A stretch of DNA of 20,390 nucleotides from a virus (IMGVR_UViG_2579778982_000025:1-20390), one strand, 5' to 3'; numbered from the stretch's first letter, positions 5,474-20,390 are shown. The notes: generated by a model from the letters alone, not told the origin. Numbers and translations are program-made.

Positions 5474-5511
5474 TTATGATTGTGGGTGTCTGGTTGGAAA
5501 CTGACCAGATA

Positions 5512-5630: not shown

Positions 5631-5642
5631 AAGAGCGAACAT

Positions 5643-7134: not shown

Positions 7135-7422
7135 ATGGATAAAGATACTGTTTTAAAAATGTTGAATCCGGCTTGTTTAAAAAAAGCGGATGAATGGGAA
7201 TCTCCTACATGTGGAGAAGTTCGGGCAGTCATTGGCCTGACCGGAATGAGCGGCTCGCAGTTGGCCAAAAAACTAGGCTTAAAAGATAGTCGCAATGTTC
7301 GCAACTGGCAGATGTTAAAGGAGTCCACATCCAGATCCAGCATTCCGTATGCAGCCTGGGCGCTGCTGTGTTACTTCGCTGGGTTAGGGTTAATCTTCAT
7401 TGATAACAAAACAGATGTTTGA
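7135..7422 (+). CDS. hypothetical protein with putative HTH motif and hydrophobic C-terminus
   Basis: ATG 7135 preceded by GGAG (7125-7128). 95 aa, MDKDTVLKMLNPACLKKADEWESPTCGEVRAVIGLTGMSGSQLAKKLGL... ending in IPYAAWALLCYFAGLGLIFI. No family recognised. Confidence 0.5.
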   Translation: MDKDTVLKMLNPACLKKADEWESPTCGEVRAVIGLTGMSGSQLAKKLGLKDSRNVRNWQMLKESTSRSSIPYAAWALLCYFAGLGLIFIDNKTDV

Positions 7423-8612: not shown

Positions 8613-8640
8613 GTAAGGCCCCATTGGGGCCTTACTTATT
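8613..8640. terminator. bidirectional terminator
   Basis: gtaaggcccc-attg-gggccttac hairpin followed by ttatttactt, between convergent genes. Confidence 0.6.
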
Positions 8641-8924: not shown

Positions 8925-8972
8925 TTGGTACCTCAAATTGTTTAAAATGTGTTAATTACAAAATTCAGCCGA

Positions 8973-8997: not shown

Positions 8998-9085
8998 CTG
9001 AAATGTCTTTTTCAAGACCTTGCCAATAAGCTAAACAAAAATGTTTAATCATTCGCCTAAAAAAACACCAGTCACTATTATTTAT

Positions 9086-9186
9086 ATAATTATATATTTA
9101 TATAAAAAGTGCTTTACAGGTGGGAAAAAATTTCCTAAGGTTATACCCGAAACCGAGCGATACCCGCCCTGGTTAAACCGGAGATA
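9086..9186 (+). promoter_or_regulatory. repeated promoter / 5'UTR cassette, copy 1
   Basis: Near-identical to 19153..19252. Contains TTTACA - 17 bp - TAAGGT (TATGGT in copy 2) promoter-like hexamers, a ~55-nt leader and a GGAG RBS, preceded by AT-rich palindromes. Confidence 0.5.
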
Positions 9187-9191
9187 ACCCG

Positions 9192-9572
9192 ATGAGCATG
9201 ATTAAAATCCGCAAAAACGCTTTCCTTAAAATTCAAACTATCCTGGCTGGTTCTGTTGGCGTGATTTGCCGTTCTTCTTCAAGCCGCATCGATGACGGCT
9301 ACGATGATGAGTACCGTGTGTCCTCGTGCGATGAGGCTTTAACCTGGCTGAAGGAGAATCAGGAACGTGCCCAGGTATATCTGGAAACAGAGAACGGCAA
9401 TCAGATGCTGCGTATTAGCGGTCGTTATGGATTTGAAACTACATTCATGGCCTATTTTAATCAGGCTTACTTTGACAAGGAGTTGGCCTGGTACACTGAT
9501 CGCATGAGCAAAAGCGAGCCAGCCCCGATTACACCGCCGAACAATAAACCATTTTTATTCCTCGTTAAGTAA
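9192..9572 (+). CDS. hypothetical protein
   Basis: 126-aa ORF driven by the repeated promoter cassette. Acidic, no recognisable motif. Confidence 0.5.
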   Translation: MSMIKIRKNAFLKIQTILAGSVGVICRSSSSRIDDGYDDEYRVSSCDEALTWLKENQERAQVYLETENGNQMLRISGRYGFETTFMAYFNQAYFDKELAWYTDRMSKSEPAPITPPNNKPFLFLVK

Positions 9573-9580
9573 ACACAATA

Positions 9581-9607
9581 CGCAAAGTGTCATTTTGACA
9601 CTTTGCG
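9581..9607. promoter_or_regulatory. 27-bp perfect palindrome (hairpin or operator)
   Basis: cgcaaagtgtca-ttt-tgacactttgcg, 9 nt after the 9192..9572 stop and 29 nt before the XRE-family gene. No U-tract follows, so it is an operator or RNA stability element rather than a classic terminator. Confidence 0.4.
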
Positions 9608-9635
9608 AGTGTTAATATTGTGCGAGGAGGATGCT

Positions 9636-9908
9636 ATGACGGGTTATGAATTGAAATTATGGCGTCGTGGGATGAACTGGACGCAGGAGCGAGCCGCCGA
9701 AGAATTTGGGATATCGTTGGCTACATATAAGCGATATGAGAAGGGGGAGCCGCCGAGGGTCATTGAGATGGCCATTCGCGTTCTGTCGTTTGACGATATG
9801 GTGAAGGATCTTTCACACCTTGATAAAGACGCGATTCTGTTAAGGCTGCAAACCCTTGTATGGGAAAAGGTTAAAGTGTCGTCAGAATTGGAACAAGGGA
9901 TCAAATGA
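9636..9908 (+). CDS. XRE-family HTH transcriptional regulator
   Basis: MTGYELKLWRRGMNWTQERAAEEFGISLATYKRYEKGE.... RBS GAGGAGG (9624-9630). The ORF-track start 9603 is upstream of the RBS. Confidence 0.7.
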   Translation: MTGYELKLWRRGMNWTQERAAEEFGISLATYKRYEKGEPPRVIEMAIRVLSFDDMVKDLSHLDKDAILLRLQTLVWEKVKVSSELEQGIK

Positions 9909-9957
9909 TCCTTTACGGATCGTTTTATGGTGGTGTAATGTAAGCGCCAGAAAGACA

Positions 9958-9985
9958 AAAACCGCCTTGCCGGGCGGTTTTCAGT
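9958..9985 (+). terminator. rho-independent terminator
   Basis: aaaaccgcc-ttgccg-ggcggtttt hairpin, then tcag. Confidence 0.5.
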
Positions 9986-10543
9986 CTGAAATTTAAATCT
10001 TGCTTGGTAGGCTGGATTTAAAAAGACACCTCTTGATTGGGGCGGCTTTCTTGCGTCTAAAGATAATCAAATCTTTTTGCGCCTGCAACCCCTTTTTTAC
10101 TGGTGCCTGTTTCAGACTCACGCTCGCGTCGTTGTCTTTGCCACTTCGTTGGGTTCGGTGTTTTTGGGCGGAGTGGCGCGCGGGTATGCGTACAAGGGGA
10201 AAGTGTGCTGACGCAAGCCAGGAACAGCGATCTAAACTAAGTCGAGTCTGAGAAAGGCAGGAGTGCGACAACTCGCCTGTGCTCTATGAGCAGAAGAAGG
10301 TATATCAGACGACCAATGGCATGATTGTGGGCCACAGGGCGCACACGGCGGCGAAGCATTGGAAACGATGTGGAGCTATCTGGTGGCATGAGTTCCGGTA
10401 CTCGATCTCGAGCTTTTTTTGATGCTTTTGAGAAGGGGCCGGAACTCCGGTAAAGGGCACCCTGTATGGGGGGAGGGGGGGTTGTGTCTAAAGGAAGATC
10501 CAATACGATATTGCTTTACCCTTATATCTAAAAGGAGATTTCT

Positions 10544-11179
10544 ATGGGGATGCTGGTGGCGTTTATTATTAGCCTGATTTTGTGTTTCTTCGTAGTTCGT
10601 GGTGCATATCGGAAACAATGTGGCCCATCTTCTGGTAGTAAGTTCAAAGCTGTTTTAGTGAGTGGGTTTCTTGGGATTGCTACTTTTGTTGTTGTTAATA
10701 CTCTTGCTGCTGTGGCCTTGATTCCAGAAGACTCCGGCACTACGGCTACTACCGGAGCTGCTTTCGATGGCGTGACCGTAGATAAGTTTAAGCAGCTATA
10801 TAATGATGACCTTGAAGGTATCGCTACATCAGGAAAATCCACCTCCACTATAAGAATTAAGTCAGTTAAACAAGGTAACAACACCGTTGAATTTGCCATC
10901 AATTCATCTGTTAACGGTCGAGCTAGAGTTGATAAGGATGGGAAGATTTCAGAGTTATTATGGCGAGTATCTAAGCCTAGCTCTGATTCCTTGCTTTCTA
11001 TGGCCGTAGCTGTTGAAGTCTTGGATGCATCAAGTGATAGAGACACAGTGATCGCGCAGTTAGAGCAGATTGTTAAATCTGATACGCAGAAAGCTGAGTT
11101 TAAGACTAAGAGAGGCGAGTATTACGTTTCTCGTGACAAATCAGGGCACGTGTCGCTACTGATTACACCGAAATATTAA
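10544..11179 (+). CDS. membrane protein with two predicted N-terminal transmembrane helices, function unknown
   Basis: Strong RBS AAGGAG 7 nt upstream. Hydrophobic segments MLVAFIISLILCFFVV and VLVSGFLGIATFVVVNTLAAVALI, then a Ser/Thr-rich soluble domain. Confidence 0.65.
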   Translation: MGMLVAFIISLILCFFVVRGAYRKQCGPSSGSKFKAVLVSGFLGIATFVVVNTLAAVALIPEDSGTTATTGAAFDGVTVDKFKQLYNDDLEGIATSGKSTSTIRIKSVKQGNNTVEFAINSSVNGRARVDKDGKISELLWRVSKPSSDSLLSMAVAVEVLDASSDRDTVIAQLEQIVKSDTQKAEFKTKRGEYYVSRDKSGHVSLLITPKY

Positions 11180-11188
11180 GAATTGAAG

Positions 11189-11216
11189 AAGCGCCCAAAT
11201 CGGGCGCTTTGTTTTA
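11189..11216. terminator. bidirectional terminator
   Basis: aagcgccc-aaatc-gggcgctt followed by tgtttt, between convergent genes. Confidence 0.6.
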
Positions 11217-12356
11217 TGGTTTTGCACCTGCGGCCAGTTTATCCGCCGATATCTTTATCAGTTCCTGTAGTGTCCTGGCTGGTAGGTTTGCATCCAGTAC
11301 GCTGAGTATGCTGCTGTGATCTGCCTGGTCGACTACTTTGCCTGTCGGTGGTAGTAGCTTGAGCTGAGGATTCAGGTTTTCGTCAAAGCTGATCAGTGCT
11401 CTGGCGTTTCTGAGCAGATCAAGAAGTAAGGCTGATATCACATTTTCCTGAGTCATTGCTGGCAGATTTAGCGCCGCTTTGGTTTTCCCTGTTGCCTTGT
11501 CAAACTCCTTGATTAGTTCCTTCCTGTAGTTCGGTTCCGTTAATAGCCGATTATGCTCTGTTGCCGCGCGGATAATCGTTTTTTCCTGGTACAGTCGTTT
11601 AGCCAGATCACGCTCGTACTGTGTTTTTAACACGCTGCTGATAGCGTTAAAGGCTTCAATGTAGGCCAGCTTGATATCTTTCACGCTTGGACCGTCGATG
11701 CTCTCCATGAGTAAGGTAAATCCGTCTTTTGTCATGCGATAGATTGTTATTTCGCGGTCGCTTCCTTCCAGCGGTCGTTGCTCTTTAAAGAAGTGACGCG
11801 CCGCAGCCGTGCGAGGAATGCGTAGCGCATCGATGGCCATAACGATGGAATTGTTTGTGGTGCTGAATGCCTGGGCAACATCGGCTGAGGTTGTGAGTGG
11901 CTCGTTGTTGCACACTTTAATGTAAAACATCGGTTTGGCGTTGAGCGTATCGACAACCTCACGAGCATTGTTTGGCGAGACGGTAACGGTCGCGGCCGTT
12001 TGCGCGTTCTGGTTGAAGTAGCAGTCTTCCAGCCGTTCGAACACATCCCACGCTTGGTTAGTTTCAAGCATTTTGGCGTGACGTGCAGCCCCGCGTTCGG
12101 TCCAGAGGATTAGTTTTCTAACGTTATTCGCGATGGTTTGAAAATCTCTTAAAGAGATTTTCAAACTTTGGAGATCTGTACCTTTTACAACTATGAAATG
12201 TTTTCCTTCTGTAAACCGGGACTTATTACGGTGGTGATTTCTGTGAAGACATTCGACGCTACAGCCATATAGTTTGGCAAGCAGCTCCGTGGTGATAACG
12301 GGGATCTGGTTATGCAGGATAGGCTGTAGGGTGTTAACGGTCGGAAGCGTTTTCAT
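11214..12356 (-). CDS. phage antirepressor-like protein (ORF6N/Rha-type N-terminal DNA-binding domains, long C-terminal region)
   Basis: 380 aa. N-terminal ...ITTELLAKLYGCSVECLHRNHHRNKSRFTEGKHFIVVKG... resembles ORF6N-type antirepressor domains; a second similar segment ...TTSADVAQAFSTTNNSIVMAIDAL follows. Family assignment is from memory of motifs only. Confidence 0.55.
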   Translation of the reverse strand: MKTLPTVNTLQPILHNQIPVITTELLAKLYGCSVECLHRNHHRNKSRFTEGKHFIVVKGTDLQSLKISLRDFQTIANNVRKLILWTERGAARHAKMLETNQAWDVFERLEDCYFNQNAQTAATVTVSPNNAREVVDTLNAKPMFYIKVCNNEPLTTSADVAQAFSTTNNSIVMAIDALRIPRTAAARHFFKEQRPLEGSDREITIYRMTKDGFTLLMESIDGPSVKDIKLAYIEAFNAISSVLKTQYERDLAKRLYQEKTIIRAATEHNRLLTEPNYRKELIKEFDKATGKTKAALNLPAMTQENVISALLLDLLRNARALISFDENLNPQLKLLPPTGKVVDQADHSSILSVLDANLPARTLQELIKISADKLAAGAKP

Positions 12357-12640
12357 TTTGCACCTCCCATAACTACTTTGGTTACGAGGGAGATTTTTGC
12401 GTCAGAAACAGCGTTATCGTTGCTGGCGATGCGCATAGCTTCGCGCTCGATGATTTCAGCCAGGCGGAATTTATCGGCGTATGAGGCTTTCTTGAGAAGG
12501 ATCTTTACGAGGTTGACGTAATAGTCATGGGGTAAGTTTGTCATGATGATAGTTCCAGTTTTGATATTGGAATAATCACCACCGCTGACGCCAATCAGTG
12601 AGGTGGTGAGACGTACAGGGTTGGCGTAACCGGTCATCAT
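12353..12640 (-). CDS. hypothetical protein
   Basis: Stop overlaps the start of the antirepressor-like gene in an ATGA arrangement, suggesting translational coupling. Start ambiguous between 12640 and an internal ATG (MTNLPHD...). Confidence 0.4.
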   Translation of the reverse strand: MMTGYANPVRLTTSLIGVSGGDYSNIKTGTIIMTNLPHDYYVNLVKILLKKASYADKFRLAEIIEREAMRIASNDNAVSDAKISLVTKVVMGGAK

Positions 12641-12844
12641 GATACCCGGCGAGCCTTACGGCTCCCCCGCACGCCCCACCATAATTCGGGTGTAGCTGTG
12701 CTTTACGCATAAAAAAACCGCTAACGCGGTATGCGCCATGATGATTATCGGGACGCCAATCCCGACCGTAGATTTTGCTACGGCTCGGAAAGTGTCCACC
12801 AATGGCGCATTTATGTCAATACAGCGGGATTTTAACAGACTAAA

Positions 12845-12857
12845 CCACATAGTGTGG
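12845..12857. promoter_or_regulatory. operator-like palindrome CCACA-TAG-TGTGG
   Basis: Same motif class as the cI/cro operators; in the divergent intergenic region 12641-12994. Confidence 0.4.
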
Positions 12858-12883
12858 GTTTGAATGCGGGGCTTTTAATTTTC

Positions 12884-12912
12884 TTGATATGCTAAAAACG
12901 GGAATGTATAGT
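12884..12912 (+). promoter_or_regulatory. sigma70-type promoter for 12995..13534
   Basis: TTGATA (12884-12889) - 17 bp - TATAGT (12907-12912). Confidence 0.5.
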
Positions 12913-12994
12913 TCCTGTAAGGAATCAATTAGTCCTGAGTTATGGTGTTTTGTTAAAGTCGGGAACAAGAAAAAATTCAGTATGGGGATAAAAA

Positions 12995-13534
12995 ATGATT
13001 GAACTGTCAAAAAACTCATGTTTTTCAACCATTCACCTAATGATCATAAAAGAACTTAGGCTAGAAAGAGGTGTGCATCAAGGAGTACTGGCTCAAGCTG
13101 CTGGAAAAACACCAAACGCATGGACAAAGATAGAGAACGGGCAGTCTGTATTAACAGTTGACGCCCTTTTTGGTGCTTTCACAGCCCTTAATATTACTCC
13201 AGTGAATTTCATGTCATTGGTAGAAAATCTTATTCCCGAATTTAACCGTTATGGTTACTTCTTTTTCCCTGGAACAATCAGTCAGGACGAGGATAACCTT
13301 TTACCTCTGATGCTGCGTTACTTTAATAGCAAGGGGTTTGAAGCATTGAGAAATAGGCCATTCGAAAGAGTTAGCATTAGCTCAATGGGATTCTCATTTG
13401 GGGGCGGCATCCCTGTTACTCCAACTGCTGTAATGTATTGTTGCGATGAAGCATATAGAAATTGGGTCGATAACGGTGCTGATGTGGATAATCGAGATTA
13501 TCTGGAGTCATCAACAGGTCGTGGACTGTTTTAA
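12995..13534 (+). CDS. HTH (XRE-like) domain protein with C-terminal domain of unknown function
   Basis: 179 aa. N-terminal LMIIKELRLERGVHQGVLAQAAGKTPNAWTKIENGQSV is HTH-like. RBS GGGGA upstream of ATG 12995. Confidence 0.55.
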   Translation: MIELSKNSCFSTIHLMIIKELRLERGVHQGVLAQAAGKTPNAWTKIENGQSVLTVDALFGAFTALNITPVNFMSLVENLIPEFNRYGYFFFPGTISQDEDNLLPLMLRYFNSKGFEALRNRPFERVSISSMGFSFGGGIPVTPTAVMYCCDEAYRNWVDNGADVDNRDYLESSTGRGLF

Positions 13535-13553
13535 TGAGTGAAGAAACAAAAAA

Positions 13554-13580
13554 ACCGTCCTATTGAGGACGGTCCTTTCG
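13554..13580 (+). terminator. weak rho-independent terminator
   Basis: accgtcc-tattga-ggacggt followed by cctttcg, preceded by an A-run. Confidence 0.35.
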
Positions 13581-13726
13581 TGCTGATCGGATTCGCGGTC
13601 CTTTCAGCATTACGTTGTTGTATAAACAACCACGCAAGCACAAGCAGCAAATTGATTTTACTCAAAAGGTAATAATAGTCCACTATTATACATCAAAAAA
13701 TTGTGGTTCTTGTTGTGTCAGCAAAC

Positions 13727-13739
13727 TCACAGATTGTGG
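13727..13739. promoter_or_regulatory. operator-like palindrome TCACA-GAT-TGTGG
   Basis: Same motif class; flanking aaactcac matches the site at 16685. Confidence 0.35.
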
Positions 13740-13971
13740 GTAGGTTACTGATTTTGTGAAAATAAACTGTTTTTTTCGTTTAATTTCTTTCCTATTACTA
13801 ATCTTAAAATAATCGTAAAATACCTGTGGACCTTCCCGCCGATTCGCACCCGGGCACCGACTTTAGGGGAGGATTTCCTGTTGCCGTACATGCAAGCACA
13901 AGCAGCCGTGCTTGCTCTCGCGTTGTTTTCGTCGGTGGGGATGTCGTGAAACGGCCTGTAAGGGCCACACA

Positions 13972-14094
13972 ATGAAAAAATACTACATGTGTATTTTTAT
14001 CGTTGTTACTGGAGCTTTGTTTACGCCACATGGGGAGGGTTGGAAGATTACTGATAACGCTCTGAATGTGACGATAAACATTAGCAGCAAGTAG
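13972..14094 (+). CDS. small hydrophobic peptide (40 aa), candidate small membrane protein or type I toxin
   Basis: MKKYYMCIFIVVTGALFTPHGEGWKITDNALNVTINISSK. RBS AGGG 7 nt upstream. Strong terminator immediately downstream. Confidence 0.4.
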   Translation: MKKYYMCIFIVVTGALFTPHGEGWKITDNALNVTINISSK

Positions 14095-14099
14095 CGATT

Positions 14100-14123
14100 A
14101 GGCCCCTTCGGGGGCCTTTTTTA
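14100..14123 (+). terminator. rho-independent terminator
   Basis: aggcccc-ttcg-ggggcct followed by tttttta. Confidence 0.7.
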
Positions 14124-14132
14124 TGGTTGAAT

Positions 14133-14282
14133 TTAAACGCTTGAGCGCATTAAGCCTTTCAGAACTGCTTCACGTACCCATTCTGGCCTGGTGGATAGCA
14201 GGGCAAATAAGCGACCAGCTTGCAGCCGTTTGAGGTCGGTTAGACGAGTTTTCAGTAACCGTGTATATTGTTGTTCGGACAT
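14133..14282 (-). CDS. small hypothetical protein (49 aa)
   Basis: MSEQQYTRLLKTRLTDLKRLQAGRLFALL...; ATG 14282 preceded by AAGGGGA. Co-oriented with and downstream of the partition genes. Confidence 0.35.
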   Translation of the reverse strand: MSEQQYTRLLKTRLTDLKRLQAGRLFALLSTRPEWVREAVLKGLMRSSV

Positions 14283-14344
14283 AACAAATTCCCCTTGTTG
14301 TGTCGCGACGGCCAACAGTTGGCGCTGGAGGCCGTCACCTTCTC

Positions 14345-14593
14345 TTACTTCTGGTTGTATTGAGCCTTGAGTAACTCAAAAGATTTTGTCAGCACTTCTT
14401 TCAATGACATATCCATTGAGCTGGCGAATGTTTTGTACTCACGTTTAAATTCAGGGTCGACGTTAAACGCCATTTGTGCCCCACCTGATTTGGTTCTGGT
14501 TGGCGTTTCAGTCGGGTCGAAAACCTGCGGTTGTTCGATCGATGGCGGTACGCCTTTGCTGTTCTTCTTTGGTGGTTTTGATGGTGCGGCCAT
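14345..14593 (-). CDS. ParG-like ribbon-helix-helix partition / centromere-binding protein
   Basis: 82 aa with a basic, flexible N-terminus and C-terminal ...AQMAFNVDPEFKREYKTFASSMDMSLKEVLTKSFELLKAQY, resembling RHH ParG-type partners of small ParA ATPases. RBS AGAGGGG. Immediately downstream of parA. Confidence 0.55.
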   Translation of the reverse strand: MAAPSKPPKKNSKGVPPSIEQPQVFDPTETPTRTKSGGAQMAFNVDPEFKREYKTFASSMDMSLKEVLTKSFELLKAQYNQK

Positions 14594-14636
14594 GTGTATC
14601 CCCTCTTATATAAATCTATAAAACTATAATTATATA

Positions 14637-15290
14637 TTACGCGGCAGTAGTCAGAGCCTCAAGCTGGTTGATAATCCCCTGAATAACGTCGTCTGCCTTT
14701 TTGCGTGGCGCAACGTATGAGCACTCAATGAGGCTTAAGCCCTTATCCTGAGCTTTGCTCAGAGCTGGCTTGTGGGGAATGTACTTATCGACAACAAAGT
14801 ATGGCGTATTAGCCAGGTACTCTTGGGCTTCAATGTAGTCGGCTTCGTTTTCAGCCGCGCCTGAGAACACCATGCAAATTTTCTTGATTGGCACACCCTT
14901 TTTAACGATGCCATGAGCTGTGTTAACGGTGGTTTCCAGGTCATCGGTAGAGAATCTGGTTGGCAAAATAACCATATCCAGAAATTCAGAGAGCTTCGGT
15001 ACTGATTCAGATGCGTAGGCACCGCCATCGACGATAACCAGGTCGTATACTTCTGATTCGATGATTTTCTGGACTTGTGATGGTGTGCCGCACGGCTGCG
15101 CCGCGATTGCAGGTTCGATATTGTTGGCCATTCTGCGTTGTACCCAACGCGTTACCGTTCCGTTAAGCACATCCATATCGATCAGGCATACATTCCAGCC
15201 GGCCTTTGCATAAGCAACTGCTAAAGCACGGGCAATTGTTGATTTGGTTACGCCGCCTTTTCCGTTGAAAATACCTACAGAGATAGTCAT
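14637..15290 (-). CDS. parA: ParA-family partition ATPase (small type Ib, deviant Walker A)
   Basis: MTISVGIFNGKGGVTKSTIARALAVAYAKAGWNVCLIDMD... has the KGGxxK[ST] deviant Walker A at the N-terminus. 217 aa from ATG 15290; the ORF-track start 15305 adds 5 residues without an RBS. Confidence 0.75.
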   Translation of the reverse strand: MTISVGIFNGKGGVTKSTIARALAVAYAKAGWNVCLIDMDVLNGTVTRWVQRRMANNIEPAIAAQPCGTPSQVQKIIESEVYDLVIVDGGAYASESVPKLSEFLDMVILPTRFSTDDLETTVNTAHGIVKKGVPIKKICMVFSGAAENEADYIEAQEYLANTPYFVVDKYIPHKPALSKAQDKGLSLIECSYVAPRKKADDVIQGIINQLEALTTAA

Positions 15291-15305
15291 TTGTCGAGAC
15301 TCCAT

Positions 15306-15420
15306 GTGTTTGGTTATATAATTCTATAAATCTATATTTATAGAACGAGGTAAGCATAACCAACTTTTTGGCGGATGAAAAGTGTTTTATATAATTATAT
15401 AAATCTATAATCATATAAGC
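15306..15420. repeat. AT-rich palindromic repeat cluster upstream of parA (candidate centromere / partition operator)
   Basis: Two blocks, ttatataattctataaatctatatttataga (15314-15344) and ttttatataattatataaatctataatcatata (15385-15417), built from TATAAATCTATA and TATATAATTATA units. Confidence 0.45.
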
Positions 15421-15440
15421 GGGCGTTAGCCCGCTTGCAG

Positions 15441-15815
15441 TCAGAGGTCAGCTATCGTTGATATCAGTTGATTTGCTAGCTGTCGCTGTTTACGTGAGAG
15501 GGTTAGAGCAGCTTCTGAGCGGTCGCTAAGAGGGGTGTTTTCATCAAGAATCATGAGGCATACAGAAATAATAGCCCTGTTATATGCCATCAATGGCTGG
15601 CACAGCTTCGATACCGCTGGCACATCGTATTGTAAGGCCGTTTTGAGGCAGACTTTTTGTTCTGATGCCAGATGAAGGATAGATTCTATCCAGTCGATAT
15701 CTTTCTCATTATCAATGATTTGGCATAACATACACTCAATCGCTATGTTCAACGCTTGGATTTCGATTCCAGCAGTGATCAGAGTTTCGTTTTTATTGGC
15801 TGTATGTAATTCCAT
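15441..15815 (-). CDS. hypothetical protein encoded downstream of and co-oriented with the repressor gene
   Basis: 124-aa ORF with RBS AGAGG; no motif recognised. An operator-like palindrome lies just upstream. Confidence 0.5.
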   Translation of the reverse strand: MELHTANKNETLITAGIEIQALNIAIECMLCQIIDNEKDIDWIESILHLASEQKVCLKTALQYDVPAVSKLCQPLMAYNRAIISVCLMILDENTPLSDRSEAALTLSRKQRQLANQLISTIADL

Positions 15816-15851
15816 GCGTAGCCTCTTTTATACTTTTACATGTTGTCAAAA

Positions 15852-15864
15852 CCACAAAATGTGG
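15852..15864. promoter_or_regulatory. operator-like palindrome CCACA-AAA-TGTGG
   Basis: Perfect inverted repeat within aaaccacaaaatgtggttttttt, between the repressor gene and 15441..15815. Confidence 0.45.
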
Positions 15865-15907
15865 TTTTTTTGAGCGTAGAAATGCACGGCTTTCGCCGTG
15901 CTGTGTA

Positions 15908-16564
15908 TCATAACCAGTTGACAACACTAACTACGCGGCCAAGAACTTTATAACGCTTAAATTCCTCGTTATTCAGATGATTAGTGTTCATTTCAGCGTC
16001 CCTTTCGGTTGACAGCATAACAGCATTGTCACCCGGTATGACTCTACAGTGCCTCAAAACAACCAGGCCATTTCTGTCTTCAAGGGCATAGATCCCCTCA
16101 TGAATCTCTGTATCGTCTGTATCAATCAGGACTTGGGAGCCAGGGGATATTGTTGGTGACATTAACTCATCGTTGCTCTGGAGAACTGACAGAGACGATG
16201 GGTTGATGTTCTTGCTTCGTAGAATCTCCTGTTCTATCGCCAGCACTGGCTTTTCTCCGGCGTGCGATGCTATGTCATTTTTTATAGCTACAAGCCCAGG
16301 AATAACAGGAGCGTTAGTATTCTGGGGTGGGAACGGGTTATCTGTTAAGCACGCGATATAAGGCGCTGATGCTTTCAGGGCGTGCGCGATTTTCTTGATG
16401 GCAGGTATAGATGGTTGTCTTAATCCGGCCTCATAGTTCTGCAAGGTGCTTAAGCCTATTCCAGTGACTTGCTGGAGATCTCCGGCAGTCATGCCGGATT
16501 GTTTCCGTAGAGTCTGAATGCGCAGACCTATTTCTTTCTTGATGTTCTCGTCGTTGCTTTTCAT
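15908..16564 (-). CDS. CI/LexA-like phage repressor (N-terminal HTH, C-terminal S24 peptidase-like autocleavage domain)
   Basis: 218 aa. N-terminal HTH (LRKQSGMTAGDLQQVTGIGLSTLQNYEAG). C-terminal region with MSPTISPGSQVLIDT and KVLGRVVSVV resembles the Ser/Lys dyad regions of LexA and lambda CI. Divergent from a Cro-like gene, with operators between. Confidence 0.8.
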   Translation of the reverse strand: MKSNDENIKKEIGLRIQTLRKQSGMTAGDLQQVTGIGLSTLQNYEAGLRQPSIPAIKKIAHALKASAPYIACLTDNPFPPQNTNAPVIPGLVAIKNDIASHAGEKPVLAIEQEILRSKNINPSSLSVLQSNDELMSPTISPGSQVLIDTDDTEIHEGIYALEDRNGLVVLRHCRVIPGDNAVMLSTERDAEMNTNHLNNEEFKRYKVLGRVVSVVNWL

Positions 16565-16602
16565 GTCTCATCAATCGTGAATGGTGGGTTATTTATACAT
16601 TA

Positions 16603-16718
16603 CCACATTTAGTGGTTTTCACATGGTAAGACGAGAGGTGGACCACAAATAGAAGGTTATTTTTTGTTTCGCCCATTGAAAAACTCACGATATGTGGTTT
16701 TAATACCACATATCGTGG
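16603..16718. promoter_or_regulatory. immunity-region operators and PR-like promoter
   Basis: Operator-like sites CCACA-TTT-AGTGG (16603-16615), TCACG-ATA-TGTGG (16685-16697) and CCACA-TAT-CGTGG (16706-16718). The last two are inverted copies of each other, 21 bp centre to centre. They bracket a strong promoter TTGAAA (16676-16681) - 17 bp - TTTAAT (16699-16704) reading into the Cro-like gene. Confidence 0.6.
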
Positions 16719-16737
16719 TTTAACTGGAGTTCGTTAA

Positions 16738-17232
16738 ATGACCTTTCAGGAGTGGGTTGACGAAAATGGAGGCCAAATTGGTGTTGCCAGAAAGTTTGGC
16801 TTTACGTCATCACTGATTGGTGCCTGGTATCGCTTCGAGAGATTCCCTCGTGCGGATAACCTGACGCTGCTGGTGGCGTATTCGGAAGGCCGGATTAACG
16901 TCCAGCAATGGGCGGCAGATTTTGCCGAACGTCAGCGCCAGCGTAGCGATGGCACATCGGTTCGGCAGAACAAGATCAAAGGGAATCTCCCTGTTAACTG
17001 CTTATCAAGGCTGAAAGCGGTTTTCTCTGAGCTGGGGATGCCTGCGGAGCGTTGCAATCTACGCGGTCCGCGATTCATTGCTCGCTGGAAACACTCACAC
17101 GTAACCGTTTCAGAGGTTCGTGATGCGATTGCCGTGCTGGAGCTTAAGAATAAAGATTCCAGCGATATCGAGCTGATTCATAAGGAGATTAGCAACGCCC
17201 GGCGTTCAGCACTTGGGAGGCTTGAGGAATGA
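16738..17232 (+). CDS. Cro/YdaS-like HTH regulator with C-terminal extension
   Basis: N-terminus ...GGQIGVARKFGFTSSLIGAWYRFERFPRADNLTLLVAYSEGRINVQ resembles Cro/YdaS-type HTH proteins. RBS GGAG (16726-16729). First gene of the operon divergent from the repressor. Confidence 0.6.
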   Translation: MTFQEWVDENGGQIGVARKFGFTSSLIGAWYRFERFPRADNLTLLVAYSEGRINVQQWAADFAERQRQRSDGTSVRQNKIKGNLPVNCLSRLKAVFSELGMPAERCNLRGPRFIARWKHSHVTVSEVRDAIAVLELKNKDSSDIELIHKEISNARRSALGRLEE

Positions 17233-17744
17233 TGATTCTGGCCTTCTTTGGTGATAATCACCAGATTCAATCGCAGGTGGTGCACTACCTTGATCAAACT
17301 ATTAAAGGATTTGTTATCGATCATATTGATAACGATAGCAAACATCTATCTGTAGATCAGAAAATTGGACGTGTGCAGCGACTGGTTGCCTGCCGTAACA
17401 GACGTGACACCGTAACAGTCGTCACGGGGATAACGGAGGTCATGGAGTACCAGATGTTGCTGCATCGTGGAGCTGTTTTCTGCGTTCTTCCTGGCATTCT
17501 GCCAGCAATTCTTGCTCGTGGTTTTGTCCCTATTGATGAGTCGTTCTTATATGTAACCCCAAGCCGTTCCCTTCTGGATACGGAGGCGAAGCGTCGCATT
17601 TATATGATGCCGGACGAGGCATTTTCTGAATGTTACCGCCGTGAAATGAGGTTGGGTAAACGAGAAGTGTCTGTTGTTCGTGATGGCAGGTTTTTAAGAA
17701 GCCGCACGGTGAAAAGCACCAGAAATGACGGGGGCCATCAATGA
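17229..17744 (+). CDS. hypothetical early-operon protein
   Basis: 171-aa ORF; start overlaps the upstream stop (ATGA), indicating translational coupling. Confidence 0.5.
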   Translation: MMILAFFGDNHQIQSQVVHYLDQTIKGFVIDHIDNDSKHLSVDQKIGRVQRLVACRNRRDTVTVVTGITEVMEYQMLLHRGAVFCVLPGILPAILARGFVPIDESFLYVTPSRSLLDTEAKRRIYMMPDEAFSECYRREMRLGKREVSVVRDGRFLRSRTVKSTRNDGGHQ

Positions 17745-17974
17745 GTAGTTATGTTCGCGGTGCTGCGATGCATTGCCAGAATCCCCAATTCTGGCGCTTT
17801 CTGACCAGTAAAACAGGGAAGAACGTTTCAAACAGTTCTGAGGCCTCTGTGATTCTGCGTGAGTTTTGCGGGATCTCATCCCGTAAAGAGCTGGCAAAGA
17901 ACTACGCGGCCAGAAGCATGTATGTCCAGTTAATCAACGAGTTCAACCTCTTTATCAATGGTAAGGGGCGCTGA
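17741..17974 (+). CDS. hypothetical early-operon protein
   Basis: 77-aa ORF; ATGA overlap with the upstream gene. Confidence 0.45.
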   Translation: MSSYVRGAAMHCQNPQFWRFLTSKTGKNVSNSSEASVILREFCGISSRKELAKNYAARSMYVQLINEFNLFINGKGR

Positions 17975-18378
17975 TGAACGGACGTACACCAACGAAGAAA
18001 GAGAAACTTTATATACAAGCGGTGCTCACTCACGTGGGTTGCATAGCTTGCATTATTGATGGCCGTGAAATTGAGAATCCAGAACTGTGGACGGAGCTGC
18101 ATCACGATCCTGATTACGGCAGCGTTGATGAGAATTGCCACTTCCATAGCTTTGGGCTGTGCGCACCACATCATCGCGGTGTTGTGCCTGGTGGTGGGCG
18201 TGTGCCTCCGCATATTGCCGTTCGTCACCCTCCCCTGAGTAATTGTGCTCGCTTTGTTGAGCGTTATGGCACAGATGAATTTTTGTGTGCGCAGACGTGG
18301 GAGCTGTTGCCGCAGTCAGTTAAAGACGAAATTGGGTTTGATCTTAGTCTTGGTGAAGTACCAGGGGATACCAAATGA
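17974..18378 (+). CDS. Cys/His-rich putative zinc-binding nuclease-like protein (HNH / Ref-like)
   Basis: 134 aa with CIACIIDG ... HHDPDYG ... CHFHSFGLCAPHH pattern; start overlaps the upstream stop by 1 nt. Family is a guess from the metal-ligand pattern. Confidence 0.45.
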   Translation: MNGRTPTKKEKLYIQAVLTHVGCIACIIDGREIENPELWTELHHDPDYGSVDENCHFHSFGLCAPHHRGVVPGGGRVPPHIAVRHPPLSNCARFVERYGTDEFLCAQTWELLPQSVKDEIGFDLSLGEVPGDTK

Positions 18379-18707
18379 GATATACCGGCTTTCGCAAACC
18401 AGCGACTAGGAAAAGCAAATACGGCAATAAAAAAACGGTTGTCGATGATATCGCTTTTGATAGCAAAAAAGAGGCTGATTACTACTGCGAACTGAAGCTA
18501 CTGAGAAAAGCTGGCCGCGTTGTGACGTTTCTTATGCAGGTGCCTTTTCATCTGCCAGGTGGTGTCGTTTATAAACTTGATTTCATGGTGTTTTATGACG
18601 ATGGGACGATTGATTGTGTCGACACTAAAGGTGTGCGAACAGACGTCTACATCATGAAGAAAAAGCAGGTAGAGGCGCTTTATCCCGTCACGATACGGGA
18701 GATCTGA
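18375..18707 (+). CDS. DUF1064-like phage protein
   Basis: 110 aa, ...KYGNKKTVVDDIAFDSKKEADYYCELKLL...YKLDFMVFYDDGTIDCVDTKGVRTDVYIMKKK..., matching my recollection of the DUF1064 phage family. ATGA overlap with the upstream gene. Confidence 0.55.
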   Translation: MRYTGFRKPATRKSKYGNKKTVVDDIAFDSKKEADYYCELKLLRKAGRVVTFLMQVPFHLPGGVVYKLDFMVFYDDGTIDCVDTKGVRTDVYIMKKKQVEALYPVTIREI

Positions 18708-18710
18708 ACA

Positions 18711-19088
18711 GTGAGACGCGATCTGGATAGCTTGTTTGAGCTATGGGCGCTGTGGGTGCGCAATGGCTGCAACGCCCGTAGCGGTTTCGCGTCGATGTTA
18801 GAAATGATGATGGTTACGCGCTGCCAGTTTACCGGAGGAGGCGGCGCACCAAATGACTCACTGGAAACCAGTATCGAGGGAGCGGTGACGGCCCTCACGG
18901 TAGTTGATGAGACTGCGGCGCTGGTTGTCCGAATTGAATACGGGGCGTGGGAGATTCGGGGCCTCGACATAAATGCACCGCATATTGATAAAGCCCACGC
19001 CCTTTCTCTTAGTCTCAGACAGTATCGCCGGAAGCTGGCAAAAGCCAGGGCGTATGTTGTCGACTATTTGAAAAAGCGAAGAGAGTGA
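18711..19088 (+). CDS. possible Q-like antiterminator / late regulator (weak assignment)
   Basis: 125 aa, GTG start 3 nt after the upstream stop. N-terminus MRRDLDSLFELWALWVRNG... is reminiscent of short Q-homologues of lambdoid prophages. Last gene of the early operon, just upstream of a promoter cassette. Confidence 0.35.
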   Translation: MRRDLDSLFELWALWVRNGCNARSGFASMLEMMMVTRCQFTGGGGAPNDSLETSIEGAVTALTVVDETAALVVRIEYGAWEIRGLDINAPHIDKAHALSLSLRQYRRKLAKARAYVVDYLKKRRE

Positions 19089-19152
19089 AAGTGTCATTTT
19101 GAGCTGTTTTGATGGTGTGTAGACATCGGGAACATCGAAAATCTATAAATAT

Positions 19153-19252
19153 ATAATTATAGATTTATATAAAAAGTGCTTTACAGGTGGGAAAAAATTT
19201 CCTATGGTTATACCCGAAACCGAGCGATACTCGCCCTGGTTAAACCGGAGAA
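19153..19252 (+). promoter_or_regulatory. repeated promoter / 5'UTR cassette, copy 2
   Basis: About 95% identical to 9086..9186 (offset ~10,066-10,068 bp). TTTACA - 17 bp - TATGGT, shared leader, GGAG RBS. Confidence 0.5.
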
Positions 19253-19257
19253 ATCTG

Positions 19258-20335: not shown

Positions 20336-20390
20336 ACGGCGGGACGTCTCCCGCCGTATATAGAATTATATATTTATATAAATATATAAG
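20336..20390. terminator. hairpin terminator followed by an AT-rich palindromic repeat block
   Basis: acggcggga-cgtc-tcccgccgt (20336-20357), then tatagaattatatatttatataaatatataag, the same repeat family as at 9081, 14607, 15314, 15385 and 19139. Confidence 0.45.

Follow-up and report, generated by a model that had tools for sequence, protein, structure and literature searches.

A promoter-leader cassette repeated in a family of phage-plasmids probably puts accessory genes under the control of the plasmid's partition protein

A repeated cassette in front of unrelated genes

The window is the whole stretch of viral DNA that we analyzed (20,390 nucleotides; IMGVR_UViG_2579778982_000025:1-20390). 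A repeat search of the window found that positions 9083-9184 (copy 1) and 19150-19251 (copy 2) are 97% identical over 102 nt, with a spacing of 10067. With blastn, the match grows to about 113 nt, with one indel adjoining the ribosome binding site (RBS). The near-identical duplication of about 100 bp that had been described, about 10 kb apart, is therefore real, and the coordinates first given for it (9086-9186 and 19153-19252) are correct to within 3 nt. The three mismatches are in an AT-rich array (T 9095 versus G 19162), in the -10 hexamer (A 9138 versus T 19205, or TAAGGT versus TATGGT), and in the loop of a hairpin (C 9165 versus T 19232). The copies part ways 3' of GGAGA (ATAACCCGATG in copy 1 and AATCTGATG in copy 2). 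A 100-nt repeat with 97% identity cannot have arisen by chance in 20 kb. An assembly artifact, which the preliminary description had named as a possible explanation, is ruled out as well: we found the same cassette in the genomes of 3 Yersinia phages, in 65 plasmid records, and in 74 complete E. coli genomes, and the median was 3 copies per replicon.

From 5' to 3', the cassette begins with four 8-bp units in an array. A sigma-70-type promoter follows, with a palindrome in its 17-bp spacer, and then come a hairpin and a GGAG RBS. The copy 1 promoter (9113..9141, + strand; -35 TTTACA at 9113-9118, 17-bp spacer, -10 TAAGGT at 9136-9141) was identified from its sequence and its conservation. In a scan of the region with the consensus promoter, promoter-like sites were no more common than in shuffled sequence, and copy 1 was under the threshold. 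The copy 2 promoter (19180..19208, + strand; -35 TTTACA at 19180-19185, 17-bp spacer, -10 TATGGT at 19203-19208) matches the consensus at 9 of 12 positions. The -35 (TTTACA, TTGCAG, or TTGTCA), the invariant 17-bp spacer, the -10 (TAnnnT), and the GGAG are kept in six diverged lineages, which upholds the original view of a promoter, leader, and RBS module placed before unrelated genes; the hexamers and their 17-bp spacing are conserved across 14 cassettes from 5 lineages. Assuming a transcription start about 7 nt past the -10, the leader is about 42-44 nt, not about 55 nt as originally estimated.

Copy 1 drives a gene for a 126-aa protein of unknown function (9192..9572, + strand; phrog_8090), with a perfect hairpin 3' of it at 9581-9607. 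Its translation-initiation block (AAACCGGAGATAACCCGATG, 9175..9194, + strand; GGAG at 9180-9183, ATG at 9192) hardly differs between the E. coli and the Serratia lineages. Copy 2 (RBS and start codon at 19242..19260, + strand; GGAG at 19247-19250) drives a gene for a 355-aa DUF3560 protein (19258..20325, + strand; PF12083, E = 3.8e-31). Copy 2 does lie ahead of the DUF3560 gene, as had been proposed, with ATG 19258 as the start; the in-frame ATG at 19204 is within the -10 and is not the start. Upstream of copy 2 is the last gene of the early operon (18711..19088, + strand), which encodes a 125-aa protein with a sigma-region-4-like or Q21-like fold.

Copy number and genomic setting

A 48-kb phage-plasmid carries this conserved promoter-plus-leader module three times, and two of the copies are in the window. 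A search for further copies found the third one beyond it: in L001, a complete relative, the cassettes are at 27256, 37146, and 44058 (the third copy). The preliminary description overlooked this copy, as well as the 8-bp arrays that are shared with the par locus, the operator in the spacer, and the covarying hairpin. More than 60 phage-plasmids from E. coli, Salmonella, and Serratia have about three copies each; plasmids from Salmonella, S. marcescens, and Serratia sp. JSRIV006 have three copies apiece. Another Serratia-type relative (IMG/VR contig 640753048_000002, 46.8 kb) has at least two cassettes in the parts that we examined.

These phage-plasmids are about 44-49 kb and have an IncFII-type RepA. 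Their virion modules vary: some cassette-bearing relatives have contractile-tail genes and one has lambda-like tail genes. Between the E. coli and the Serratia elements, backbone proteins share just 17-53% identity, which bears on the age of the cassette arrangement. The genes downstream of the cassettes vary from lineage to lineage. In the E. coli type, each cassette precedes one accessory gene (for the 126-aa protein, the DUF3560 protein, or a 73-aa protein) and then a hairpin or terminator. Copy 1 of this type is in the plasmid-maintenance region; copy 3 is 3' of a methyltransferase gene and is followed by the 73-aa ORF, a strong terminator, and the packaging genes. The plasmid-maintenance region of the Serratia plasmids contains two of their three cassettes.

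Arrays of an 8-bp unit in the cassettes and around parA

E. coli and Salmonella elements have the array unit WTMTATAA, Serratia elements have WTMTTTAA, and this one-base switch covers every array of a genome (all 6-9 of them). The copy 1 array (ACTATTAT TTATATAA TTATATAT TTATATAA, 9074..9105) was found as a repeat family and by a scan for clusters of units; it ends 7 bp 5' of the -35, and its counterpart in L001 has four clean units. A repeat search and the cluster scan also identified the copy 2 array (ATCTATAA ATATATAA TTATAGAT TTATATAA, 19141..19172) and an array between parA and the gene for a candidate centromere-binding protein (14606..14637). A free-standing array lies 3' of the DUF3560 gene (20358..20389), after a GC-rich hairpin and directly 5' of the next gene's RBS (GGATGCCTCGACAATG in L001).

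In a strict scan, L001 has 8 array loci, all of them intergenic: 3 in cassettes, 3 around parA, and 2 free-standing. An unbiased scan for 28-nt segments with at least 27 A/T returned array loci only, and missed some arrays. L001 has 9 TATA-type clusters (the 8 array loci and one short cluster within a tail gene, which we take to be due to chance), compared to 8 in L002, and TTTA-type clusters are absent from both. The pattern is the opposite in the Serratia plasmids, where all of the clusters are TTTA-type (7 in L003 and 6 in L050) and none is TATA-type. The number of clusters expected by chance is 0.2 or less.

The parA control region (15314..15418, - strand) has array A (15387-15418), a -35 (TTTTCA, 15381-15376), a 17-bp spacer, a -10 (TATGCT, 15358-15353), array B (15314-15345), and an RBS (GGAGTCTCGACAAATG). 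The Serratia parA promoter is sandwiched between two arrays in the same way, with the Serratia-type unit. At the parA promoter, as in the cassettes, the array ends 5-9 bp 5' of the -35. parA (14637..15305, - strand) encodes a small ParA-type ATPase of 222 aa (Pfam CbiA/ParA/MipZ; NCBIfam ParA_partition with E = 4.7e-22, which is below the model's cut-off).

The gene 3' of parA (14345..14593, - strand) encodes the candidate centromere-binding protein. It has 82 aa, with a disordered N-terminal tail rich in lysine and proline followed by a predicted strand-helix-helix, and it looks like a ParG-type ribbon-helix-helix protein. When we compared a profile of its family to PDB, ParG (1P94) was the top match (E = 0.44), and a smaller profile matched the ribbon-helix-helix protein SvtR (2KEL, E = 0.1). 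Pfam's RHH_10 matched 16 of the 49 family members; the 82-aa protein from the window had no match in Pfam. In the AlphaFold model, the N-terminal tail is disordered and there are two helices, and a Foldseek search with this monomer model was uninformative. At the predicted DNA-facing end of the beta-strand, the residue is Q in four lineages whose arrays are of the TATA/ATAT type, and A, P, or L in four whose arrays are of the TTTAA type. This correlation reflects perhaps 2-3 independent evolutionary events. Alternatively, the arrays could be bound by a conserved 124-aa protein that is encoded adjoining parA.

A palindrome in the promoter spacer

In copy 1, the spacer contains the palindrome TGGGAAAAAATTTCCTA (9121..9137; inverted arms GGAAA/TTTCC), and in copy 2 the corresponding site is at 19188-19204, within the 17-bp spacer. 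A fourth promoter in the window has the same putative operator (7080..7108, + strand; TTGCCA at 7080-7085, TAGGAAAAGATTTCCTA at 7088-7104 in the spacer, and TACCAT at 7103-7108). It precedes a gene for a 95-aa helix-turn-helix (HTH) protein (7135..7422, + strand), which is a candidate autoregulator. This gene is conserved, lies in the plasmid region, and adjoins repA. Across 5 lineages, the cassettes and the HTH gene's promoter carry matching versions of the site: the E. coli and Salmonella version is TAGGAAA-N3-TTTCCTA, and the Serratia version is TAGGAnnAAAAGTCCTA. The symmetry of the palindrome survives sequence change (AGGAAA/TTTCCT, AGGAC/GTCCT, and AGGTC/GACCT). L053, a partial contig, has neither the HTH gene nor the operator nor the cassette, but it retains parA, the arrays, and the genes for the small protein and the 125-aa protein. 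This co-occurrence, including the one case of absence on a partial contig, suggests that the HTH protein binds the operator.

A hairpin at the start of the leader

The copy 1 leader hairpin (AACC-GA-GCG-ATACC-CGC-CCT-GGTT; 9151..9174, + strand) starts 9 nt past the -10 and was identified with RNAalifold, pair counts, and folds of single sequences. The copy 2 hairpin (19218..19241, + strand) has the C-to-T difference in its loop. The hairpin is an interrupted stem of 7 bp and starts at a near-constant distance past the -10 (9-10 nt), which is within 2-4 nt of the predicted 5' end of the RNA. RNAalifold recovers it with 2 covarying pairs and none broken. With a manual register, for which the inner stem was chosen by eye, all 7 pairs are kept across 11 distinct sequences and 5 of the 7 show double changes. 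The z-scores for single-sequence folds are modest (-1.3 to -2.5).

A cassette that may be co-regulated with partition

Given the anatomy of the cassette, its copy number, its conservation, and the three kinds of covariation that we observed, we think it fairly likely that the cassette is a modular expression unit that is co-regulated with partition, with its arrays bound by the small protein and its spacer palindrome bound by a second regulator. We think it probable that the cassette subjects accessory genes to the partition protein of the plasmid, instead of being a late promoter. We propose that the arrays, which are the same element as around the parA promoter, bind the 82-aa ribbon-helix-helix-type protein and serve both as operators and as centromere-like sites. 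If so, the three cassette promoters would be co-regulated with the partition operon. Full occupancy would most likely cause repression, as with ParG at its own operator or omega at its own promoters. The arrays 5' of the -35 could equally be UP elements or activator sites. The second regulator is most likely the 95-aa HTH protein, because its own promoter bears the same element.

The hairpin may protect or tune the mRNA. Stem-loops at the 5' end stabilize mRNAs such as ompA's, and the cassette's hairpin, like that in the ompA 5' UTR, is within a few nt of the (predicted) 5' end. It could instead be a site for a protein or an RNase, or it could tune translation. A phage moron is a unit of a promoter, a single gene, and then a hairpin or terminator, and each E. 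coli-type cassette with its accessory gene would behave like a moron unit.

Overall, the original interpretation is partly supported. Its suggestion of a late promoter is a weak one, and we consider it unlikely that the cassette is a lambda PR'-type promoter at which the 125-aa protein loads as a Q-like antiterminator, for instance at the spacer element, for read-through past the terminators 3' of each unit's first gene and into lysis and morphogenesis genes. In a Q cassette, by definition, the Q gene comes first, and a promoter, a pause element, a terminator, and the late genes come after it (bioRxiv 10.1101/651190). In five lineages, one cassette is directly 3' of the 125-aa gene (sometimes with a small ORF between), much as in lambdoid phages, where a constitutive sigma-70 promoter is 3' of the last early gene and terminators precede the late genes. 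The order of features after copy 3 would also fit, as would the terminator before the holin gene (in 4 of 4 lineages examined) and the spacer element, which sits where lambda's Q-binding element sits.

The last early gene does encode a small protein with a Q21-like or sigma-region-4-like fold, but the protein does not match either Pfam family for Q (PF06530 or PF03589), and a profile search against PDB gave a weak HTH match alone. The first 25 nt of the cassette transcript have no conserved -10-like (sigma-dependent) pause element. Q21's binding element is a direct repeat with two 8-bp subsites (bioRxiv 10.1101/651190), whereas the spacer element is palindromic and also occurs in the promoter of the HTH gene beside repA. 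Unlike PR', the cassette leads into a translated gene and not into a short terminated RNA. The 125-aa gene is kept in L053 and L055 with no cassette 3' of it, and two of the three Serratia cassettes are among plasmid-maintenance genes (in the E. coli type, this is so for copy 1 only). Finally, a unit with a promoter, TAACGT, and a strong terminator is conserved directly 5' of the holin gene in four lineages (L001 41177-41288; L002 32082-32197; L003 42056-42167; L050 35608-35723) and is a better fit to PR'/tR'.

It is also quite unlikely that the cassette is just a strong constitutive promoter that was copied along with its leader, with arrays that are UP elements or curved DNA and with no dedicated trans-acting partners for the palindrome and the hairpin. 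UP elements lie at about -40 to -75 and are AT-rich there, which is where the cassette's AT-rich arrays are; the -35 is near consensus with 17-bp spacing; and the three driven genes are unrelated and have a hairpin 3' of each, as in morons. But UP elements would need neither strict units of 8 bp nor a one-base switch that is coherent across all 6-9 arrays, and they would not explain the arrays that are 3' of the parA -10, between parA and the gene for the candidate centromere-binding protein, or after terminators. Nor would a constitutive promoter account for the symmetry of the palindrome being kept through changes or for the compensatory changes in the hairpin.

We consider it very unlikely that the cassettes are mainly substrates for recombination (direct repeats for the deletion, amplification, or shuffling of the blocks that they flank), since this leaves the purifying selection on the promoter, operator, and hairpin unexplained, three copies are retained in nearly all of the more than 60 plasmids, and two shortened natural plasmids, which bear on the earlier idea of repeat-mediated deletion or amplification, have end points away from the cassettes (L001 30862/48027 and 39469/1). 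A deletion between copies 1 and 2 should also be lost, as it would remove parA, the small protein, and a CI-like repressor. A similar role in recombination was proposed for the promoter-stem-loop cassettes of T4-type phages. Cassettes from the same genome are 92-98% identical in E. coli and Salmonella, versus 86-89% for positional counterparts between genomes, which points to gene conversion among the copies. The turnover of the genes 3' of the cassettes would also fit with recombination, as would an IS26-truncated copy on an unrelated conjugative plasmid that also bears a predicted cfr resistance gene.

Comparison with known systems

Returning to co-regulation with partition, one similar system is omega (a ribbon-helix-helix ParB) and delta (a ParA) of pSM19035, which, like the proteins predicted here, are a small ParA and a small ribbon-helix-helix protein. 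Omega's sites are mixed-orientation arrays of 7-bp units (8-bp units here), and several arrays at promoters (P-delta, P-omega, and P-copS) are both operators and centromeres (PMC9499535; PMC4627068), as we propose here. A functional parS takes at least 4 contiguous repeats (PMC9499535), and the arrays here have about four units. At low occupancy omega can activate, and at full occupancy it can repress. We did not detect sequence homology between the small protein and omega. The elements described here also differ from pSM19035 in being Gram-negative phage-plasmids with 8 arrays instead of 3, three of which are fused to an otherwise identical promoter and leader cassette, and in having an extra palindromic operator in the spacer and a covarying 5' hairpin.

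ParF/ParG of TP228 is a type Ib system from E. coli, and ParG is a 76-aa ribbon-helix-helix protein with a flexible N-terminal tail, comparable to the tailed 82-aa protein. ParG's sites are 4-bp boxes with 4-bp AT-rich spacers, in direct and inverted orientations, and its operator serves as a centromere too; the resulting 8-bp period of parH/OF is like that of our units (PMC3130281). The ParG sites form one block 5' of parFG with the box ACTC, whereas the arrays here are dispersed and have TATA or TTTA. ParG is the top PDB match of the family profile, but the match is weak. We know of no promoters beyond its own operator that are under ParG's control.

In RK2 (IncP-1), the partition protein KorB and the small HTH repressor KorA jointly control dispersed promoters (PMC5577506, PMC2680271, PMC4889941), which parallels the proposed pairing of the arrays with the spacer operator. 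KorB is a large HTH ParB-type CTPase that acts on 13-bp palindromes, unlike our ribbon-helix-helix candidate for 8-bp arrays, and RK2 is a conjugative plasmid whose promoters are not copies of each other. The phage-plasmid N15 has several separate SopB centromere sites (IR1-IR4) instead of one compact centromere (PMC7205306), which resembles the dispersed arrays. The Sop system of N15 is of type Ia, with palindromes of 16 bp that occur singly, and N15 lacks arrays of units or a shared promoter and leader cassette. Grigoriev and Lobocka reportedly noted in 2001 that some N15 SopB sites are near phage promoters. If the co-regulation that we propose is correct, then the cassette system would be akin to omega of pSM19035 or to KorB/KorA of RK2.

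A conserved regulatory module in a phage-plasmid

The preliminary description had reported a near-identical stretch of about 100 bp that is duplicated about 10 kb apart, and a repeat search bore this out: 9083-9184 and 19150-19251 are 97% identical over 102 nt, at a spacing of 10067 bp, which is far beyond chance. In a gapped comparison, the match grows to about 113 nt. Copy 1 and copy 2 differ at three positions (T/G at 9095; A/T at 9138, or TAAGGT vs. TATGGT; and C/T at 9165), and they part ways just past GGAGA. The repeat is not an artefact of assembly, as three Yersinia phages that were sequenced independently carry the cassette, as do 65 plasmid records and 74 of 5,426 complete E. coli genomes. 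Among these E. coli genomes, the median number of places with the cassette is three. Rather than being a recent accident, the repeat is a conserved regulatory module. Most likely, three promoters for accessory genes are co-regulated with the partition operon, via arrays of 8-bp units, a second operator, and an RNA hairpin.

Yersinia phages vB_YpM_39, 41, and 44 (circular records of 49 kb) match the window at about 97% identity, and the element is a phage-plasmid. The window encodes an IncFII-type RepA (5511-6491), a HigB/HigA-like pair, a small ParA (14637-15305, minus strand), a CI-like S24 repressor (15908-16564, minus strand) that faces an early operon (16738-19088), and an ORF6N/Rha antirepressor. 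Beyond the window, vB_YpM_41 has lysis genes, a tRNA-Met, a methyltransferase, ParB-like nucleases, the terminase, and myovirus structural genes. In vB_YpM_41, cassettes are located at 27256, before a gene for a 126-aa protein (copy 1 of the window); at 37146, before the DUF3560 gene (copy 2); and at 44058, before a gene for a 73-aa protein (copy 3).

Most database copies of the cassette are at least 95% identical, and the informative ones are in more divergent relatives. These are Salmonella pAR-0407-1 (three copies, 86-89% identical); Serratia marcescens YL4 p2 (three copies, about 70% identical); a plasmid from Serratia sp. JSRIV006 that has lambda-like tail genes (three copies); the Serratia-type IMG/VR contig 640753048_000002 (46.8 kb, with two copies in the parts that we fetched); and two Logan contigs, of which L055 has one cassette in the part that we fetched and L053 has arrays but no cassette. 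One family member (NZ_CP009073.1; 48,488 bp, with three cassettes) is found in E. coli ATCC 25922, a reference strain. A 94-kb E. coli plasmid (NZ_CP032086.1) has six cassettes and two genes for the small par protein, and probably consists of two family members, joined as a dimer or as a cointegrate. pSLy3 was considered as the same element, but it belongs to the SSU5 supergroup (about 100 kb).

When we scanned species-representative genomes for the conserved 20-mer AAACCGGAGATANNCCGATG, we found 31 loci, all from unrelated taxa, and we take these to be chance matches. Our literature search did not find a paper that describes the module, and the paper on pseudolysogeny of HQ103 has nothing about the regulation of this phage-plasmid element.

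The predicted promoter and the palindrome in its spacer

In copy 1, an array of 8-bp units (9074-9105) is followed by 7 bp, a putative -35 box (TTTACA, 9113-9118), a 17-bp spacer with TGGGAAAAAATTTCCTA (9121-9137), and a putative -10 box (TAAGGT, 9136-9141), with another 9 nt to the leader hairpin. Copy 2 has the identical layout at an offset of 10067 bp, with its ATG at 19258. A consensus promoter scan of the single sequence did not score the cassette region above chance, so our promoter call is based on conservation across lineages. Across 14 cassettes and L055, there is no variation at the first two positions of the -35 box (TT), at positions 1, 2, and 6 of the -10 box (TAnnnT), or in the 17-bp spacing, and such conserved hexamers, set 17 ± 1 bp apart, point to a sigma-70 promoter.

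The inverted repeat in the spacer changes its arms across lineages yet stays symmetric: the arms are AGGAAA/TTTCCT in E. coli and Salmonella, AGGAC/GTCCT in copy C from S. marcescens, and AGGTC/GACCT in the IMG/VR contig. A fourth promoter with this spacer design (TTGCCA, a spacer with TAGGAAAAGATTTCCTA, and TACCAT; 7080-7108) drives the gene for a 95-aa HTH protein (7135-7422), which adjoins the replication region. This promoter, with its spacer element, is present in all five lineages, and the element matches the cassettes of its own lineage (it ends in TTTCC in E. coli and Salmonella vs. AGTCC in Serratia). Contig L053 retains the 125-aa gene, parA, the gene for the small protein, and seven arrays, and the 18.5 kb that we saw lacks the cassette, any AGG-N9-CCTA promoter, and any homolog of the HTH gene. 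The simplest reading of this co-occurrence is that the HTH protein regulates itself and would act on the cassettes as well.

Divergent from copy 1 is a gene for a 98-aa protein with a weak HTH signal (8640-8936, minus strand), and there is a minus-strand promoter-like site within the array of copy 1 (9106-9077). In vB_YpM_41, a terminator takes the place of the 98-aa gene.

The leader hairpin and the ribosome binding site

The leader is about 42-44 nt long if transcription starts about 7 nt past the -10 box. In copy 1, it contains an interrupted hairpin (AACC-GA-GCG-ATACC-CGC-CCT-GGTT, 9151-9174), which is followed by AAACCGGAGATAACCCG and then by the ATG at 9192. RNAalifold predicted the hairpin from 11 distinct leaders, with two pairs that change on both sides and none that are broken; the changes are A-U/A-U, G-C/G-C, and G-C/A-U combinations. 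With L055 included and the register set manually, 11 of 11 sequences have standard pairs at all seven positions and five pairs have double changes, although the register of the inner stem was picked by eye, so this count leans towards structure. The z-scores from folding single sequences are modest (-1.3 to -2.5). In every lineage, the hairpin begins 9-10 nt past the -10 box, which places it within a few nucleotides of the likely 5' end. Known stabilising 5' stem-loops have this layout.

After the hairpin, the block AAACCGGAGATAACCCGATG is almost invariant between the E. coli and Serratia elements, even though their backbone proteins are just 17-53% identical, which suggests that this block is constrained beyond what a generic ribosome binding site would require. 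We looked across vB_YpM_41 for a complement to the block, as an antisense partner would have, and found only the cassettes themselves. In Rfam, the leader had no match at the gathering threshold in a scan of the window, and no match with E ≤ 1 within 9040-9260.

Arrays of 8-bp units at the cassettes and at the par locus

The 5' part of the cassette belongs to a family of dispersed AT-rich arrays (repeat family D1). Within the window, arrays are located in copy 1 (9074-9105), between parA and the gene for an 82-aa protein (14606-14637), on both sides of the parA promoter (15314-15345 and 15387-15418), in copy 2 (19141-19172), and after the DUF3560 gene (20358-20389). With another at 42914 and one in copy 3, vB_YpM_41 has eight arrays, all intergenic. 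An unbiased scan of the four complete genomes for 28-nt windows with at least 27 A/T found array loci only, and missed some of the arrays.

Along the minus strand, the order of elements at parA is: terminator, array A, 5 bp, TTTTCA, 17 bp, TATGCT, 7 bp, array B, ribosome binding site, ATG. So the array at parA is placed relative to the -35 box as it is in the cassettes. As in type Ib par loci, two four-unit arrays bracket the -35 and -10 boxes of parA, and the third lies in the gap between parA and the 82-aa gene; Salmonella and Serratia keep this layout. At the three cassette promoters in each of the four complete plasmids, arrays lie 5-9 bp upstream of the -35 box (the partly recovered Serratia-type IMG/VR contig and L055 contribute two cassettes and one cassette). 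As far as site placement goes, this is what would be expected of a global regulator, with sites at several promoters besides its own.

Elements from E. coli, Yersinia, and Salmonella have WTMTATAA units (in either orientation) and those of the Serratia lineages have WTMTTTAA units, so one position differs. There are nine clusters of TATA-type units in vB_YpM_41 and eight in pAR-0407-1, with no TTTA-type clusters in either; conversely, there are seven TTTA-type clusters in YL4 p2 and six in the JSRIV006 plasmid, with no TATA-type clusters in either. (The chance expectation is 0.2 clusters or less. We take the ninth cluster in vB_YpM_41, a short one within a tail gene at 13053-13064, to be due to chance.) The switch is coherent over every array of a genome, and the arrays at the cassettes and at the par locus change together, which is our chief reason to think that they are all read by a single trans-acting factor.

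We also noticed a second recurring module, in which an array is directly followed by a ribosome binding site of the form GGAG/GGAT-N-CTCGACAA-ATG. It is found at parA (15306-15313), at the gene after the DUF3560 gene (vB_YpM_41, 38386-38401), at the parA starts in Serratia, and after the 125-aa gene in L055.

ParA and a candidate for the protein that binds the arrays

ParA has 222 amino acids and matches CbiA (E = 1.7e-12), ParA, and MipZ in Pfam. It also matches NCBIfam's ParA_partition over its full length (E = 4.7e-22), below that model's cut-off. It is a small Walker-type ParA without an N-terminal DNA-binding domain, as in type Ib systems.

The gene for the 82-aa protein (14345-14593, minus strand) starts 44 bp past parA. 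The protein has a Lys/Pro-rich N-terminal tail that is followed by a predicted strand and two predicted helices; in the AlphaFold model of the monomer, residues 1-46 are disordered and 47-59 and 62-81 are helices. A word-indexed protein search found close relatives only, so we defined the family with an exhaustive search, which gave about 50 representatives of 73-92 amino acids. The top PDB match for the family's profile is ParG of TP228 (1P94), with a weak E value of 0.44, and a smaller profile matches the ribbon-helix-helix (RHH) protein SvtR (2KEL), also weakly (E = 0.1). In Pfam, 16 of 49 family members match RHH_10 and 11 of 49 match Antitox_RHH, and the 82-aa protein from the window has no match of its own. 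Foldseek with the monomer model was uninformative, as would be expected for half of an RHH dimer. The indications from the model, the profiles, and Pfam are each weak, yet they agree in suggesting a possible RHH protein.

The first outward-facing residue of the predicted strand covaries with the type of array. In the four lineages whose arrays are of the TATA/ATAT type (the window, pAR-0407-1, the plasmid NZ_CP037908.1, and L055), it is Q; in the four whose arrays are of the TTTAA type (YL4 p2, the JSRIV006 plasmid, the IMG/VR contig, and L053), it is A, P, or L. This would be expected if the protein binds the arrays, and supports it indirectly. ParG binds 4-bp boxes in direct and inverted orientation, each of which takes one dimer and is set apart from the next by a regular 4-bp AT-rich spacer, and its operator also has centromere activity (PMC3130281); the 8-bp period of its sites is the period of the arrays in the phage-plasmids. 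For parS to be functional, the omega protein of pSM19035 needs four or more contiguous repeats (PMC9499535), and it shifts from activation to repression as occupancy rises (PMC4627068). From the weak RHH matches, the covariation of the strand residue, and the likeness to ParG and omega, we infer that the arrays are probably operator and centromere sites of the 82-aa protein.

The cassette and the late-promoter hypothesis

The cassette had been proposed to be a late-type promoter, and a Q-like role is possible for the product of the last gene of the early operon (the 125-aa gene, 18711-19088). However, the cassette does not have the defining parts of a Q target. Across 14 aligned cassettes, there is no conserved TAnnnT pause element in the first 25 nt, and the hairpin fills that region. 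There is a palindrome within the promoter, which the cassette has in common with the promoter in the plasmid region. And a translated gene always lies between the cassette promoter and the downstream hairpin or terminator. As for terminators ahead of the late genes, copy 3 is followed by a strong one (44412-44433 in vB_YpM_41), copy 2 by a GC hairpin without a T run, and copy 1 by a hairpin without a T run on the plus strand. The arrays themselves might have been binding sites for Q, as Q21 has 8-bp subsites, but they are at about -43 to -75, they bracket parA, and they persist in lineages that lack the cassette.

A better candidate for a late switch of the PR'/tR' type lies outside the window. 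In each of the four complete genomes, the holin gene is immediately preceded by a conserved promoter-like unit, with a -35 box (TTGTTT, TTGACA, or TTTACA), 17 bp, a -10 box (TAGTGT or TACCTT), TAACGT 6-7 nt further on, and a strong intrinsic terminator about 45-55 nt beyond TAACGT (41177-41288 in vB_YpM_41, 32082-32197 in pAR-0407-1, 42056-42167 in YL4 p2, and 35608-35723 in the JSRIV006 plasmid). This unit is a likely target of the 125-aa protein, which is Q21/sigma-4-like.

Evolution and mobility of the copies

Within a genome, copies of the cassette in E. coli and Salmonella are 92-98% identical, vs. 86-89% for positional counterparts in different genomes, which suggests that gene conversion homogenises them. 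In Serratia, the copy that follows the early operon stands apart, as it is 74-79% identical to the other two copies and closer (82%) to its counterpart in the other Serratia plasmid, so homogenisation is partial and the three-copy arrangement is old.

The preliminary description had also raised the possibility that the direct repeats mediate deletion or amplification of the block between them. Two shortened plasmids, of 32 kb and 39 kb, have sizes that suggested deletions from cassette to cassette, but they break at 30862/48027 and 39469/1 (in vB_YpM_41 coordinates), away from the cassettes, which argues against this proposal. The block does move, though by another route than the proposed one, as a copy is found on an unrelated plasmid. 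This is NZ_CP037908.1, a 28.5-kb conjugative MOBC plasmid with a predicted cfr resistance gene, where IS26 cuts the cassette (4001-4053) after GGGAAAAA. Beside the cut cassette are the same HigBA pair and a distantly related pair of genes for ParA and the small protein, with TATA-type arrays.

Other features of the window

An Ash-like gene and the gene for the ORF6N/Rha antirepressor are preceded by Rfam matches to C4 antisense RNA (81 bits, 12599-12686, minus strand) and to the Hfq-binding RNA isrK (70.9 bits, 12711-12784, minus strand). This layout resembles the antisense control of the antirepressor at immI of P1. A full-length match to ryfA RNA (144.7 bits, 13826-14122, plus strand) lies between another HTH gene (12995-13534) and the par locus.

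Around the gene for the CI-like repressor and the start of the early operon, there is a cluster of AACCAC-N5-GTGGTT palindromes (15843-15868, 16602-16623, 16676-16701, 12836-12861, and 5452-5477), which are probably CI operators. A half-site of this kind, TAACCAC, is also found upstream of the promoter before the holin gene. An exact 14-mer, AAGTGTCATTTTGA, occurs at about 9586-9599 and 19091-19104 (27759 and 37085 in vB_YpM_41); the first is half of a perfect hairpin after the 126-aa gene, and the second lies 60 bp ahead of copy 2 and closely follows the stop codon of the 125-aa gene. Finally, a Mu/P1-type invertible tail-fibre segment at 1630-4715, which has 66-nt inverted repeats (1630-1695 and 4650-4715) and adjoins an invertase gene, matches the G and C segments of Mu, D108, P1, and D6 at 92-96% identity.

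Implications

We infer which factors bind, the sign of the regulation, and the role of the hairpin. A fuller picture, which we offer tentatively and with rather less than even confidence, is that the 82-aa protein is a genome-wide regulator and that the eight dispersed arrays are centromeres and operators at once. Three of them are fused to otherwise identical promoter cassettes, each with a second operator and a hairpin, which would act as portable sockets for the expression of accessory genes (perhaps for establishment or anti-defence). Gene conversion would keep the copies alike, and the change from TATA to TTTA in each unit, together with the change in the beta strand, would set apart groups that differ in specificity or incompatibility. 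The expression of accessory genes in a phage would in this way be tied to partition status.

Phage-plasmids are common in clinical Enterobacteriaceae, and to our knowledge, almost nothing is known of their regulatory wiring outside of P1 and N15. This family is in at least 74 of 5,426 complete E. coli genomes, including that of ATCC 25922. If our proposal is true, then it is a compact and testable case of a ParG/omega-type partition protein that controls a regulon in a Gram-negative phage, with a specificity that is apparently switched by one base per 8-bp unit, and with a promoter module that has two operators and then a covarying 5' hairpin. It would also give a practical rule for finding genes that are expressed in the plasmid state, as each cassette would mark one of them (for example, the DUF3560 gene). 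The proposed logic relates to that of omega of pSM19035, ParG of TP228, KorB-KorA of RK2, and SopB of N15, and would be a variant of these systems.
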